From assembly GCA_030068145.1 (NCBI GenBank), contig JAPJBO010000158.1, positions 245,818 through 309,817 on the forward strand: 64,000 bases of DNA, read 5' to 3'. Below the pieces are notes generated by a model, which made no database searches, was not told the DNA's origin, and saw only the letters and a list, made by a program, of their open reading frames with translations. The translations under genes were made by a program, and so were the position numbers. Origin of the DNA: Diplonema papillatum. Lineage: Eukaryota. Every line of letters starts with the position of its first letter. Position 1 is the first letter of the stretch. Positions 22,222-32,105 of this stretch are shown here, piece after piece.

Positions 22222-22852
22222 ATGTCTTTCAAGAACGTCGTTATCGTCGCCGCGAAGAGAACGGCGTTCGGGTCATTCGGTGGCACACTGAAGAACGTGA
22301 CCGCGACTGACCTGGCCGTGATCTCGTCGAAAGCGGCACTCGAGCAAGGCAACGTGAACCCAGATGACATCGACCACGTCATCATGGGCAACGTCTTCCC
22401 TTCATCACCCGACGGTGCTTACCTCTCGAGGCACGTTGGCCTCAAGTCAGGCGTGCCGATCCCGACCCCTGCGCTGAATGTCAACCGTTTGTGTGGAAGT
22501 GGGTTCGAATCAATTATACAAGGAGCCCGCCTCTTGCAGGTCGGCGAGTCGAAGGCAGTCCTCGCGGGAGGCACGGAGAACATGTCGATGTGCCCGCACA
22601 GCATCTACGGCGCACGGGAAGGCAGTGGGCTTGCGTTGGGCCAATCCAAGCTTGTCGACACGCTGTGGGAAGGGCTCACCGACAGCTACAACAACACCCC
22701 CATGGGCCTCACGGCCGAGAACCTCGCCACGCAGTACTCGATCTCCCAGAAAGAAGTCGACGAGTTCTCCGTCCGCTCGCAGAAGCTTCTCGCGGAGGCC
22801 CAGGCAGCCGGCAGACTCGATGAAGAGATCTGCGTGGCCGAAGTGAAAAAGG
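22222..22852 (+). CDS. Acetyl-CoA acetyltransferase (thiolase II), exon 1
   Basis: MSFKNVVIVAAKRTAFGSFGGTLKNVTATDLAVISSKAALEQGNVNPDDIDHVIMGNVF...NRLCGSGFESI... carries the thiolase N-terminal signature with the active-site Cys. The donor is G|GTTTGC (phase 1). Confidence 0.9.
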
Positions 22853-23225
22853 GTTTGCCCCACATCCCCTCCTACTGATTCTTAACCAAAACGTGTTTTA
22901 TCCTTTGATTGAGCACTGGTTCGTCTCACCTTTCCTTCGTTGCGGCTGTGCCAAGCTGCTGTTGTCAGACGCTAGCGTGGGAAAAGTGTCACAGTCGTTG
23001 GGTAGGGGCCCTCATCCGGAGTGTATACCTGGCTCAAAAGCCACGTTCCCGCGCAGACAAAGTCCCTACGATCTTTTCACTCTAAAGAAATTGTTAGCTG
23101 CGATTTACCAGTTTTTGCTCATGCGATTTGACCTGTACGCGTTGAGTTTAAACCGCTGCCAACGTCCGTAGTATGCTCTTCACTGGCTATCGCAAAAAAG
23201 TATGCTGAAAAAAATGCACACACAG

Positions 23226-23572
23226 GAAAGAAGACGATTGAGTTCAAGAAGGACGAACACGGCCGCCCGGATGCGAGCGTTGAGGCGATGGCTAAGTTGC
23301 CGAAGGTGTTCAAGAAGGACGGCGTCGTGCACCCCGCCGCGGCTTCGGGCATCTGCGACGGGGCAAGCAGCGTGATCGTGACGACCGAAGAGTACGCGAA
23401 GGAAAAGGGGTGGACTCCTTTGGCTCGCCTGGTGTCGTTCGGCGTGTCCGGGTGCGATCCGTCCATCATGGGCATCGGCCCCGTCCCGTCCATCAGGCAG
23501 GCCCTTCTGAGAGCCGGGCGCAGCCTCGACGACATGGGCCTCATCGAGATCAACGAAGCATTCGCTCCCCAG
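23226..23572 (+). CDS. Thiolase, exon 2
   Basis: The acceptor is CACACAG|G. (G)KKTIEFKKDEHGRPDASVEAMAKLPKVFKKDGVVHPAAASGICDGASSVIVTTEEYAKEKGWTPLARLVSFGVSGCDPSIMGIGPVPSIRQALLRAGRSLDDMGLIEINEAFAPQ is collinear with ACAT1 (...NASGINDGAAA...GLTPLARIVS...PSIMGIGPIPAI...FEINEAFAA). The donor is CAG|GTATAC. Confidence 0.9.
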
Positions 23573-23592
23573 GTATACCCACCTCGCCGTAA

Positions 23593-26500
23593 AGTTTTTT
23601 TTTTTTTTTTTTTTTGGTAACTGAGGGGAGAAATGCGTGACGCACGACCACAAGCCGGACCAAACTTGTGAGTGAGGGACTGTCCGTTTTTCCGTCGGGA
23701 CTTACCCACTAAAACTCAAAACTCAGAGATTCGAGAGATGCAGAGGGTGCTACCCACGGTTCTCACCGTGTACGCGGCGCGATGGAGGGGCCACCCTCCA
23801 CGCGGGACTTGGCCAGTCCTTGCGCTGTCTGCCGCAGGGGTGCCCGGTGGCTAGCCGGATCTTGCGTCGGAACCCCTGCGCTCGCTGTGGCGCGGCTTGG
23901 CGGTCCCCAATTCCGTTTTTCTACGGTCGTTGGGGTGCCTGGTGATCGTCCAGTCTAGGCGAGTCCGGTTGAACCGGCAGACTGTGGCAAGGGTACGATC
24001 ACGCCGCTCAACTCACTCGGGGAGACACCCTCCACAAGCGACCGGCTTGCGACCGGTCTGGGAGGGTGCCTCGGGTGAGGTTGCTGCTGCACCTGGGTGT
24101 TTTGGGCGCTCTTGCTCAGGCTGGGGTCCTGAAGGCGGGCTTTTTTGGGGCAGAACTTTTCCCCCAGGAGTATGGAGCAGGGGGGGTCTTTTCGCTTCAG
24201 CCGGGGCAGTGGCTGATGGGCGGCGATTATTATTATTTCTGGGGGGGCTGGAGCCTTTTTCGGGGGGGGCGGTGGTGGCTGGTCGTCCCCCGGGGGGCGC
24301 GGTTTTTTCAAGAGTTGTGGGTTGCTCAGTCCCACCGGGGGGTCTTTTCTCTTGAGTGCCTGCGGGTTTGTTTCTGGTGCTGGTGCGTTTTTCGGGGGGA
24401 GTGGCTCTCGTTTTGGGGGAGGTGCCTGCGGGTTTGTTTCGGGTGCTGAGGCGTTTTTCGGGGGGGGGAGCTCTCGTTTTTGGGGGGGTGCCTGCGGGTT
24501 TGTTTCGGATGCTGAGGCGTTTTTCGGGGGGGGGAGCTCTCGTTTTTGGGGGGGTGCCTGTGGGTTTGTTGGTGGTTGGCGTTTTTCGGGGGGCTGGGGG
24601 GTTTTCGCGGCTGCCTGCAGCTTGAGCGCCTGTGTGTGTGGATTGGGGCCTTTTGGTAGCCCTTGCTTTTTTGGTGGGGGTCGACCTTTTCCGGGGGGAT
24701 CCAGGGGCTTCGAGGTGGCCGGGGCGGTCTCCCCCTTGCGGACCTGCGGCTTTGGGGTTTTGGGCGGACGCCCCCGGAGAAGCAAGCAGCCGTCCCGGAA
24801 GACGAGGAGATGCCGGCCTCGGACGGCGCGCAGGCTGACGTCGAGCGACCGAAGGCGACGCGACGGGAAGGCGAAGTCCCCCCTCAACGGCAACACCCCC
24901 AGTGCCACCCGCACCCCCGAAAGAAACAGTAGCACCCCAGCCCCCCCAGCACGCCGCGGCCGGAACGGCAGAGGGAGTGCGGGTGGCTCCCCTGCGCCCA
25001 AGGCAGGCAGGAAAGGCGAACCCCAAGAGGGGACCGAGTCAAGTGGACTCGAGGGCGGGTACAACAGGGAGCGGGATCCGAGGCCCCTCACAGCACCCCC
25101 CTATCCAACACGACACCAACATGCAGGTCGAGGAGGCAGAGGCGACGAGGAAGGCCATCCTCAAGCCACTCGAAGCAGGCACGGCGGGCACGGCGTCGTC
25201 GCGCGACGGCTGGCGATGTGCACCCCCGAGGGCAACCCCGTCCGAGCCGTACAGGCAGAGACAGCGGTCGATGGGGACCAAGCGGGACCCGTTGGGGGTC
25301 GAGGATGGGCCACCCTCGTCTGTCCGGCCGCCGCTGGTGAGCCCCCCCTAGGGGGCACCGCTGGACTTCCCTCCCTGACCCCCGAAGGCCGGTGCAGGAA
25401 GTCGCTCTGCCTAGCAAAAGGGTGGTAGAGCCGAACCCCTCCGCCCCCCTGGGTGTGTGTGTTGGTGGTGGTGGTGTGCATGCCGGGTGCCCTTGGTCCG
25501 GCATGCGTGTGGTCGGTCGTGACGGCTGGCCCGCTACAGCTCGCACTTGACCCGGGTGTGTGGCGCTGGGTGGTGAGGGGGGGAACTCGGGGGATCGGCT
25601 CTACCCCCCCAGTGATCGGCATCACTTCCCCTTGCACCTGCCCCCGAGGGGCAGCTTGGGCGCCGGGCGCTCGTCCCTCATCTCCCTGTTCTCCCTGCCC
25701 CCCCTCCTGTGGTTGTTCGTCATTCGGGGGGGGGAGGGGCGGTGGTCCCTGCGCTGCCGGGGCCTGCGGTCCGCCGGGGGCGCCTCCGCCTCCGCCTTCC
25801 GGGGCGCCGCCGCCGCCTCCGCCGCCGCTCGCGACGCTGCTGCTGCTGTTGCTCCTGCTGCTGCCGCCCCCGCCGCCGCTGCTGCTGCTGCTGCTACTAC
25901 TGCTACTGCTGCTGCTGCTGCTGCCTGCCCCGTCGTCCGTGGAGACTTCGTCCAGCTCGAGTTCACCTTCCTCCACCCTTCGCGCCCCGAGGTGCACGTC
26001 CGCGTTCACGAGGGCGATGCGGGCCACCGCCCTTGCCACCACGAAGCTGAGCCTGTGGAACGCTAGGTGGGAGACCGCCGCGTAGGTCTCCCAGTCGTGC
26101 CTCCTGTGCACTGCGTTCACTAGCGCCCGCAGCTCGGGCAGGGCCGACTCGCCCCAGGCGCCGAAGGTGTCCACCACCATCGGGACCAGCAGCAGGTCCT
26201 GTTGCTCAGGAGCCTCCGCCAGGATGGGGCCGTCGTACGTCCGCCGCTTGACGGCCTCGTACTTCGTGGCCGCCCCACCCTCGGTCTCCGCCGCCTTCTT
26301 CACCGCGTTCGCCTGCAGCGGGAAGGTGATCGCCACGTCGATCAGCCTCCTCTTCTCTCCGCGCGTGTACGCTACGTCGACGCGCTTGTTCCTGTGTGGG
26401 TGTTTTGTGAAGGGCCGGTCCTCTAGGACCGGGCAGAGAAGCGCCTCCCTCGCGAGGGCGCCCACCTCGTTGCGGAGCGCTGTGTGCGCCCGCGTGCGCA

Positions 26501-31538: not shown

Positions 31539-31632
31539 GCGCTCGCTTGCCAGAAGGAACTTGACTTCCCGACCGAGAAGTTCAACCTCGACGGAGGTGC
31601 GATCGCCATCGGTCACCCGCTGGGTGCATCCG
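31539..31632 (+). CDS. Thiolase, exon 3
   Basis: The acceptor is AACCACAG|[33 protein letters not shown] matches [16 protein letters not shown]. The donor is G|GTATGCATCG (phase 1). Confidence 0.85.
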
Positions 31633-31669
31633 GTATGCATCGAATCGGGCACGCGCTCGACGGGGGGGC

Positions 31670-31870
31670 TTTTATTTTTTTTGTACCTGCCTTGCATGAA
31701 ATACTTGGGGAGGCTACCAGTGAGCGAGATCTCGAAGGGGGAAATAGTGTTGTAGCCCACACGAACCACAGGTAAACCTAGGTTTAGTGACGTAAGCGCT
31801 CGACAAAAAAATGCCCACCTTGTAGTTGCATTGTTTCTCCCCTCCTAGCCTCCGTCGAAATAGGCAGTGG
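31670..31870 (+). repeat. Dispersed repeat family G (second copy at 42215-42420), related at its poly-T end to family A
   Basis: TTTTTTTGTACCTGCCTTGCATGAAATACTTGGGGAGGCTACCAGTG...GTAGCCCACACGAACCACAGGTAAACCTAGGTTTAGTGACGTAAGCG... is shared. The head motif TTTT..A.A.GC.CC.GC.TG.A.GGAAATACT resembles the family-A head TTTTACATAAGCGCCAGCTTGAAAGGAAATGCT. Confidence 0.6.
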
Positions 31871-31988
31871 AAGCACCGCAACTGAATCGGTCATGTGCCA
31901 GTAGCGAAAGTGACACACCGTGCTCGAAAGACATAGGCGTAAACACTCGATCATGGACTCTGTCTGAAACTACAACAATCACACAGGG

Positions 31989-32105
31989 GCTCGTATCACT
32001 GCGCACTTGGTTTACGCTATGAAACAGAGAAGCGTCGAGTACTCTGTCGGCGCGGCGTGCATCGGTGGAGGTCAGGGTATCGCCGTTGTCTTGCAGGCCA
32101 TCTAA
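31989..32105 (+). CDS. Thiolase, exon 4 (terminal, with stop)
   Basis: The acceptor is CACACAG|GG, with GG completing the phase-1 Gly. ARITAHLVYAMKQRSVEYSVGAACIGGGQGIAVVLQAI* matches the thiolase C-terminus (CIGGG.G.A). Confidence 0.85.
   Translation, partial: ARITAHLVYAMKQRSVEYSVGAACIGGGQGIAVVLQAI

Follow-up and report, generated by a model that had tools for sequence, protein, structure and literature searches.

A probably dispersed long interspersed nuclear element with two open reading frames, a restriction-like endonuclease and a 2A-like peptide in a thiolase intron of Diplonema papillatum

We analyzed a stretch of 64,000 nucleotides (nt) from Diplonema papillatum (contig JAPJBO010000158.1, positions 245,818 to 309,817), hereafter the window, in which the second intron of a thiolase gene contains a retrotransposon of about 7.4 kb in antisense orientation. 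The thiolase gene lies on the plus strand. Translation and a splice search divide it into four exons separated by GT..AG introns, namely exon 1 (22222-22852, with the ATG at 22222), exon 2 (23226-23572, ending in NEAFAPQ, with the GT donor at 23573), exon 3 (31539-31632, from ALACQKE to GHPLGAS) and exon 4 (31987-32105, with the TAA stop at 32103-32105). The spliced product of 396 amino acids (aa) contains a complete Thiolase_N domain (positions 1-260 of 260, E 3.7e-73) and a complete Thiolase_C domain (2-122 of 123, E 5.8e-47). Intron 2 (23573-31538, 7966 nt, GT..AG) is made up of the element, which starts 22 nt past the 5' splice site, and of about 0.55 kb of residual intron. A first-pass annotation of this DNA had placed an antisense long interspersed nuclear element (LINE) in this intron, and the exon map and the splice search bear this out. 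It was also right that the exons are untouched, although the sizes it gave (an insertion of 7.5 kb expanding the intron from about 0.45 to 8 kb) have to be corrected to about 7.4 kb of element and about 0.55 kb of residual intron. Judging from the sequence, the insertion appears harmless to the host gene.

The element occupies positions 23595-31015 of the minus strand, an extent based on a step in composition, on the tail and on colinearity with paralogue proteins from 30850 to 23766. Its 3' end is exact and consists of a poly(A) tail of 21 residues, seen on the plus strand as a run of 21 T preceded by a G (23595-23615), and not of the 22 T counted earlier. The 5' end, accurate to about 50 nt, was set at the boundary in GC content and CA repeats: the element block has about 70 % G+C vs about 54 % in the flanks, with a sharp drop near 31005-31015. 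Read from 5' to 3' on the minus strand, the element is composed of a CA-rich leader, a first open reading frame (ORF1), a second one (ORF2), an unconserved tail, a C/A-rich 3' region with 66-nt repeats, and A21. The 5' untranslated region (30851-31015, its outer end being approximate) is rich in CA repeats, and a similar CA-rich leader is found in the relative L001. On the sense strand, the 3' region (23616-25160, minus strand) is rich in C and A, and a stable codon-position signal is lacking; the models of paralogues read it as a protein extension. It includes three tandem 66-nt repeats (24356-24570, minus strand), vs four in the paralogues P0125 and P0134.

The core of a reverse transcriptase (RT) is found at 27516-28460 on the minus strand, as shown by Pfam, by sequence matches in the Protein Data Bank (PDB) and by the motifs A (LKVDLQNAFN, 28002-28031), B (QQGDPLGPLFF, 27834-27866) and C (FYLDDG, 27516-27533). 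RVT_1 is the sole Pfam match in the long open frame of this region (aa 920-1073 of the frame, E 2.5e-8, above the Pfam cutoff), and R2 proteins head the PDB sequence matches (E 3e-7), followed by the RTs of group II introns and LINE-1. A complete RT had been proposed from the sequence alone, and all RT catalytic residues are present. Motifs B and C are separated by an 86-aa insert rich in Gln and Pro (27534-27791, minus strand), with about 2 to about 7 PAPPVQ-type repeats depending on the copy, and the RT therefore tolerates a variable in-frame minisatellite.

Downstream of the RT, a region of 314 aa (aa 1377-1690; 25944-26885, minus strand) comprises a linker, a CCHC finger and a restriction-like endonuclease (RLE) domain of the PD-(D/E)xK type, on the evidence of alignment, profile, AlphaFold and Foldseek analyses. 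The catalytic core, delimited by alignment and profile, extends over 26235-26570 and displays on the minus strand the CCHC finger (26514-26570, aa 1482-1500) followed by the motifs RxH (26466-26498), E (26412-26432), R-x-D (26364-26390), D (26319-26348) and K (26235-26261). These 314 aa were aligned with 29 homologues from diplonemid-like metagenome contigs, sponge, tardigrade, sunflower and others. In the 30 sequences, the columns of C1482, C1485, H1496 and C1500 (the CCHC finger), H1510, E1531, D1559 and K1589 are invariant, and those of R1544 and D1546 nearly so. The CCHC finger and the PD-(D/E)xK block reported at first pass, including the strings KRVDVAYT and IDVAITFP, are indeed present. 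When the profile of the domain was compared with the PDB, R2 proteins were the only matches (best 8gh6, E 2.6e-5), with an alignment that spans RHN, E, (K/R)PD and D(V); also aligned is the Asp that was changed by mutation in 8ibw, a catalytically dead construct. The AlphaFold model of the CCHC-RLE domain has a mean predicted local distance difference test score (pLDDT) of 89.7 and a predicted template modeling score of 0.87. In a Foldseek search of the PDB, its best seven matches are all R2 (E 2e-6 to 5e-4, TMq up to 0.55), followed by weak matches to other PD-(D/E)xK nucleases.

On the other hand, a Pfam search of the 1950-aa frame, ORF1, the N-terminus of ORF2 and the tail revealed no apurinic/apyrimidinic endonuclease (APE) domain, no Exo_endo_phos family being matched at E up to 1. 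The assignment of the element to the R2-like, RLE-encoding LINEs, proposed at first pass, is thus favored by the profile and fold searches, which match R2 only, and by this missing APE domain. The element has the defining features of RLE-type LINEs, that is, a LINE-type RT, a CCHC finger with a PD-(D/E)xK nuclease, and no APE. An APE-type LINE is ruled out on this basis, and a long terminal repeat or DIRS element is ruled out as well, in view of the poly(A) end and of the lack of an integrase or a recombinase.

The coding region had been described as a single uninterrupted ORF of 1950 aa. A frame of 1950 codons is indeed open (25161-31013, minus strand), but it does not represent one protein, as codon-position GC and an unconserved tail resolve two ORFs within this region. 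The first codon of the frame is TTG, with no in-frame ATG before codon 146. Long open frames of hundreds of codons exist in all six frames of the GC-rich element block, and ORF length alone is therefore weak evidence for coding. ORF1 (29450-30850, minus strand) encodes 466 aa from ATG to TGA and is defined by codon-position GC and by its annotation as a separate protein in three other copies (P0114, P0116 and P0118). Over 29453-30850, GC at the three codon positions is 0.73/0.61/0.85 in the ORF1 frame vs 0.85/0.73/0.61 in the ORF2 frame, and the conserved core of ORF2 shows the same pattern as ORF1 (0.73/0.52/0.85). The first 520 aa or so of the 1950-aa frame are an out-of-frame reading of ORF1, and this also accounts for the low-complexity N-terminal region noticed at first pass. 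ORF1 contains two CCCH-type fingers (30476-30604, minus strand), in a region 50 % identical to the N-terminus of P0014, and a C2H2-like motif (29972-30034, minus strand).

The conserved ORF2 (25944-29411, minus strand, about 1156 aa) lies in the -1 frame relative to ORF1 and is supported by similarity to homologues and by codon-position GC. Similarity to homologues that are 38-55 % identical starts at about 29411, just past the ORF1 stop, and in the gene models where ORF1 and ORF2 are fused, a 29-nt GT..AG pseudo-intron joins GPGP to DLRRLS. The homologous proteins end about 10 aa past aa ~1675, and the last 260 codons or so of the frame are unconserved. This tail of the ORF2 frame (25161-25943, minus strand, 783 nt) is of low complexity (poly-Ser/Gly and similar), has no codon-position signal and is read in another frame in the P0005 copy. 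Pfam returned nothing significant for ORF1, the ORF2 N-terminus (aa 576-871) or the tail, and a model of aa 576-930 (pLDDT 78.7) had no PDB match at E < 0.05, the best one being a LINE-1 RT at E 0.057. Altogether, the sequence is best read as an element made of ORF1, an ORF2 of about 1150 aa and a long 3' region. ORF2 would encode, in order, a 2A-like StopGo peptide, a CxCx9Hx3C knuckle, a helical N-terminal extension, the RT with its Gln/Pro insert, the linker, the CCHC finger and the PD-(D/E)xK endonuclease.

The start of ORF2 deserves particular attention. Comparison with relatives reveals in the ORF2 frame a 2A-like peptide, SLGRGGDDLTVDGCVEPHPGP (29292-29354, minus strand), which sits 32-53 codons past the ORF1 stop and has the core DGCVEPHPGP, with His in place of Asn. 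This HPGP variant is fixed in the element family (5/5 copies covering the site). At the same place, relatives have a canonical 2A, GRGGDDLxVDGDVE(S/R)NPGP, often twice (P0013-P0017 and P0026-P0028). Examples are GRGGDDLTVDGDVESNPGP, a version ending in DGCVERNPGP and another ending in DGDVERNPGP; DGDVESNPGP and GDVEINPGP also occur. The Logan-derived protein P0014 combines the ORF1-like finger, two 2A motifs and the RT-RLE region in a single chain, whereas in contig L001 the 2A follows the CA-repeat leader and there is no ORF1. More distant RLE-LINE loci from metagenomes (L014 and L031) have LLFLSGDVEINPGP upstream of the RT. In these contigs (WASV01...), LLFLSGDVEINPGP and LLFLAGDVEVNPGP were located (L014 at ~2122, L031 at ~345) ahead of RT-RLE ORFs about 31-32 % identical to the ORF2 of the window. 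P0052 and P0083 display motifs similar to 2A-like peptides. The conserved knuckle CxCx9Hx3C (29199-29249, minus strand) comes directly after the 2A and is conserved among relatives. The ATG at 29204, where gene models place the start of ORF2, is inside this knuckle, and there is no in-frame ATG between 30578 and 29204.

We propose, from this arrangement, that ORF2 is translated from upstream and then released by the 2A. Ribosomes might enter its frame either through a -1 shift while translating ORF1 or by starting at the overlapping AUG 30578, and the 2A would free the ORF2 protein from the product translated upstream. It is conceivable, though we put it forward tentatively, that diplonemids, together with relatives in other eukaryotes, harbor a dispersed lineage of two-ORF RLE LINEs in which ORF2 has no start of its own, is reached by a -1 shift or an overlapping frame, and is freed by 2A. 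2A peptides have been reported in LINEs from APE-type clades and from Dualen (PMC3708506, PMC13405545), and in this literature on LINE 2A peptides we found no statement on 2A in pure RLE-type LINEs. If the proposal were true, this would be the first 2A recoding described in a pure RLE-type LINE, with two recoding steps setting the ORF1:ORF2 ratio. The combination of ORF1, -1 frame and 2A is the part worth following up.

The element belongs to an abundant family. Database searches with its protein retrieve dozens of DIPPA_ gene models at 79-100 % identity, of which the close paralogues are 91-100 % identical; P0002 is 98.7 % identical over ORF2 and P0144 is 100 % identical over 452 aa of ORF1. 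Such near-identical paralogues fit a recent amplification. All RT and RLE catalytic residues are present in this copy, and the earlier suggestion that the element is compatible with recent activity holds, given that its conserved parts are full length and its close paralogues nearly identical. The copy may still be mobile. Self-BLAST found no further copy of the family in the window.

The 3' region also contains a segment of about 0.57 kb (24762-25336) whose orientation is opposite in the other copies with gene models reaching that far, according to tblastn searches with the paralogue proteins and to the sequences themselves. The reversal is seen directly in 8 models (P0001, P0003, P0007, P0008, P0125, P0131, P0134 and P0136), which match the minus strand down to about 25317 and then the plus strand from 24762 to 25336, with a plus-strand identity of 75.8 % over 24762-24947 and 95 % over 24920-25336. 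Three of them (P0125, P0131 and P0134) resume on the minus strand from 24758 to 23766, with an ORF2 open over 1873-1894 aa, nearly to the poly(A). In P0004, P0006 and P0009, the plus-strand match is limited to 25127-25336. No substantial inverted repeat borders the segment in this copy. The comparison indicates an inversion of this segment here relative to the copies whose models reach it.

Concerning the insertion site, the first-pass annotation had left a choice between relaxed targeting and an unrecognized target motif. More than 40 contigs, widely varying in size and up to 1 Mb long, contain gene models of the element family, some of which are fused to unrelated neighbors. A search with Rfam detected no spliced-leader (SL), 5S, U2, other small nuclear RNA (snRNA) or ribosomal RNA (rRNA) gene at or near the insertion, the nearest 28S fragments being 17 kb away. 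These two fragments of 28S large-subunit rRNA (5728-6110 and 6147-6299, plus strand; RF02543, model positions 2411-3161) lie outside any rDNA unit and match the dispersed 28S pieces described for the Diplonema genome (PMC10161547). As a proxy for targeting, we used a related family of about 3.25 kb, 32 % identical in ORF2, from one long-contig assembly (WLWD01…). Its copies (L013-L076) are 97-99 % identical to each other and come with two alternative variants of the 3' end. Of its paralogues, 11 align to the reference copy; these share with it the element and not the flanks, are truncated to a variable extent at the 5' end, and contain no RNA genes in their flanks; A runs are found at 5/12 3' junctions.

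The wide dispersal, the absence of a repeated RNA gene here and the unrelated flanks of the related family therefore favor relaxed targeting as the norm of the lineage, not tied to spliced-leader, rRNA or snRNA genes. The choice left at first pass is thus answered in part, on the relaxed side. Non-site-specific RLE elements are known, such as EhLINE (PMC1635306) and the R2-like elements of cockroaches (PMC7650587). The Diplonema genome has about 2500 gene models of transposable elements, including SLACS-type RTs, and elements within introns, reported without element-level description (PMC10161547). Since intronic elements and "SLACS reverse transcriptase" models had already been reported, the location is less surprising than assumed at first pass: an intronic, non-specific position is ordinary for the Diplonema genome, and probably also for the lineage of the element.

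Insertion by target-primed reverse transcription would leave a defined 3' end and a target-site duplication or deletion. The 3' end is sharp at A21; the 5' end is approximate, and a k-mer search found no duplication of 7 nt or more shared between the 3' flank and 30850-31540. This comparison yielded a 9-nt imperfect local match far from the boundary and a 4-nt AAAG, a possible duplication that is not significant. We propose that the endonuclease would nick the target DNA, that the plus-strand 3'-OH after G23594 would prime cDNA synthesis on the poly(A) tail, and that ORF1 would presumably serve as an RNA-binding chaperone. Overall, we consider it likely that the element is a full-length copy of a multi-copy, dispersed two-ORF RLE LINE with a 2A before the RT, which was inserted in antisense by target-primed reverse transcription and whose targeting is relaxed.

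Several points weigh against this reading. In the Diplonema family, dispersal was judged from the contigs on which gene models lie, and the 5' end from composition. The ORF2 N-terminus, whose model displays no recognizable DNA-binding fold, is uninformative on targeting and would lend no support to relaxed targeting. The inversion of about 0.57 kb may impair recognition of the 3' end. ORF1 contains no canonical -1 slippery heptamer, and G/C heptamers alone were found, for example C7 (29561-29567). Across ORF1, the -1 frame has 0 stops vs 3.8 expected from synonymous shuffles, which could reflect selection for an open frame, but P = 0.013 is too weak to build on and we discarded this idea. Finally, His replaces the critical Asn in the 2A, and a lower activity has been reported for this change (PMC3708506, PMC12338488). 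In the 2A peptides that foot-and-mouth disease virus and L1Tc carry, however, this substitution lowers StopGo activity without abolishing it (PMC3708506), and HPGP peptides can be active (PMC12338488). The peptide of the element could thus retain some activity.

Other explanations have to be weighed. One would be a single polyprotein of 1950 aa with a long disordered N-terminus rich in Arg and Gly, for which the openness of the frame over its whole length, the missing stops of the -1 frame across ORF1 and the in-frame AUG at 30578 can be invoked. Yet codon-position GC over 29453-30850 fits the ORF1 frame, the first 520 aa match no homologue whereas ORF1 matches P0014 and P0026, the frame begins with TTG, and its tail is shifted in P0005; we find this explanation highly improbable. 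More serious is the idea that the copy inserted recently but is dead, its frame break, HPGP and 3' inversion being defects, and that the family was moved by a few master copies with fused ORFs. In P0030, ORF1 and ORF2 do share one frame, across a gap of 56 nt with respect to this copy, the other copies with models extending into the region do not show the inversion, and the Asn-to-His change lowers 2A activity (PMC3708506). On the other hand, at least 8 copies have the 466-aa ORF1 with the same stop and the same -1 layout, every copy that covers the site has HPGP, and no catalytic residue of the RT or the RLE is lost. As the ORF1 stop, the -1 layout and HPGP recur across copies, they are family traits kept through amplification and not private lesions. 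A dead copy is possible, but we do not think it the probable case.

One would also wonder whether the element is site-specific after all, its target being a motif, short or degenerate, or some feature of structure or chromatin that the intron happens to contain. Most RLE-encoding LINEs are target-specific (PMC4640811), the 3' junction is sharp, and the comparison of flanks is confined to the related family. Against this stand the spread of copies over more than 40 contigs with lengths up to 1 Mb, the position of this copy in the intron of a single-copy gene with no RNA gene nearby, the unrelated flanks of the related family at 12 junctions, and the documented non-site-specific RLE elements, among them EhLINE (PMC1635306) and the R2-like elements of cockroaches (PMC7650587). 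Site-specificity seems unlikely to us, and a dispersed element with relaxed targeting, for which a fixed target motif would be lacking, is the explanation that we prefer.

A parallel can be drawn with several known groups of LINEs. SLACS and CZAR, which form the CRE clade with CRE1/2, were first described with two ORFs, and to our knowledge no 2A peptide has been described for CRE. Elements of this clade resemble ours by their euglenozoan host lineage and by an RT followed by a C-terminal RLE. The likeness extends to a poly(A) tail (A21 here), internal tandem repeats (three of 66 nt here) and zinc-finger motifs (PMC12278014). By contrast, CRE elements occupy one fixed position in spliced-leader RNA genes, whereas the element lies in a thiolase intron and its family is dispersed. 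A CRE-like site-specificity was considered and failed on the insertion in thiolase intron 2, where there is no SL RNA gene. No trypanosomatid protein appears in the homology search or among the best 120 matches of the RLE profile, and the sequence similarity to CRE is therefore low. The depositors named P0010 and P0012 "SLACS reverse transcriptase"; a possible affinity to the CRE/SLACS clade rests on such names, and the poly(A), the repeats and the euglenozoan host point that way.

In R2 elements, zinc-finger and Myb domains form the N-terminus of the single ORF, the target is 28S rDNA, and a ribozyme is present at the 5' end. The R2 proteins (R2Bm, R2Tg and R2Pm; 8gh6, 9dou, 9nl2 and 9nl3) provide the best matches to the RT and the sole significant profile and fold matches to the CCHC-RLE region, with the same order and spacing of catalytic residues. 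Unlike them, the element has two ORFs, an N-terminus without Myb or any other match, no rDNA target and an RLE domain that is only 11-15 % identical. No 5' self-cleaving ribozyme of the hepatitis delta virus type was found inside the element at Rfam gathering thresholds, which divergent ribozymes could escape. Membership of the R2 clade was rejected: the element has no 28S target, no Myb/zinc-finger N-terminus and no ribozyme, and it has two ORFs.

We know of no 2A peptide or CCCH-finger ORF1 reported for the Entamoeba EhLINEs or the R2-like elements of cockroaches. These RLE-type elements lack targeted insertion (PMC1635306, PMC7650587) and are dispersed like the family of our element, from which they differ in their hosts and presumably in their clades. 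L1Tc/ingi and other 2A-bearing LINEs resemble the element in that a 2A-like StopGo lies at the N-terminus, in frame with the enzymatic protein, and the HPGP variant is found in about 20 % of L1Tc copies (PMC3708506). Their endonuclease is nevertheless an APE, whereas in our element the 2A lies between a separate ORF1, read in another frame, and the RT-RLE protein. Utopia and NeSL are RLE LINEs with variable extra domains, a wide eukaryotic range, precise 3' ends and variable 5' ends (PMC4640811), and resemble the element in this. Utopia, however, targets U2 snRNA genes, and neither a U2 nor another snRNA gene is present at the insertion. The best 120 matches of the RLE-domain profile are mainly proteins of Asteraceae and other plants misnamed "exostosin", with no named reference element among them. 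The plant matches P0148-P0265 (Helianthus, Tanacetum, Lactuca and Trifolium) include many "putative exostosin" entries, some with RVT_1. These protein matches suggest that flowering plants harbor an abundant lineage of RLE-type LINEs.

RLE-type LINEs are regarded as the oldest LINEs and are usually described as single-ORF and site-specific, and R2 is now engineered for gene insertion. The kind of element is thus known, and what differs here is the dispersal, the two ORFs and the 2A at the start of the polymerase. The sister group of the kinetoplastids would contain a young and abundant lineage that is dispersed and has a zinc-finger ORF1 and a 2A ahead of the RT-RLE. Traits thought typical of the "younger" APE-type LINEs would also be found on the RLE side. 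Such a lineage could offer a natural system to study the translation of an ORF2 without its own AUG, and would help to explain the inflation of the 280-Mb Diplonema genome and of its introns.

The window contains two other RT ORFs, unrelated to the family. A frame of 873 aa (48124-50745, plus strand) corresponds to the C-terminal half of a different LINE RT (RVT_1 E 3e-9, FADD, CxxC...HxxxxC); the long (TC)n microsatellite ahead of it is read as (LS)n. A frame of 904 aa (51161-53875, minus strand; RVT_1 E 3e-8), with an N-terminus resembling a tyrosine-recombinase/SAM-like domain, is possibly a DIRS/VIPER-like retroelement. A region of about 3.6 kb (58254-61914) is probably a low-complexity repeat: its plus strand is A-rich and T-poor (AT skew +0.5 to +0.67), and its three open minus-strand frames have no Pfam match. 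Finally, neighboring host ORFs on the plus strand encode an RRM-domain protein (7405-9750), an M24 Xaa-Pro aminopeptidase-like protein (13549-14892) and an adenylate/guanylate cyclase-domain protein (55786-58257).

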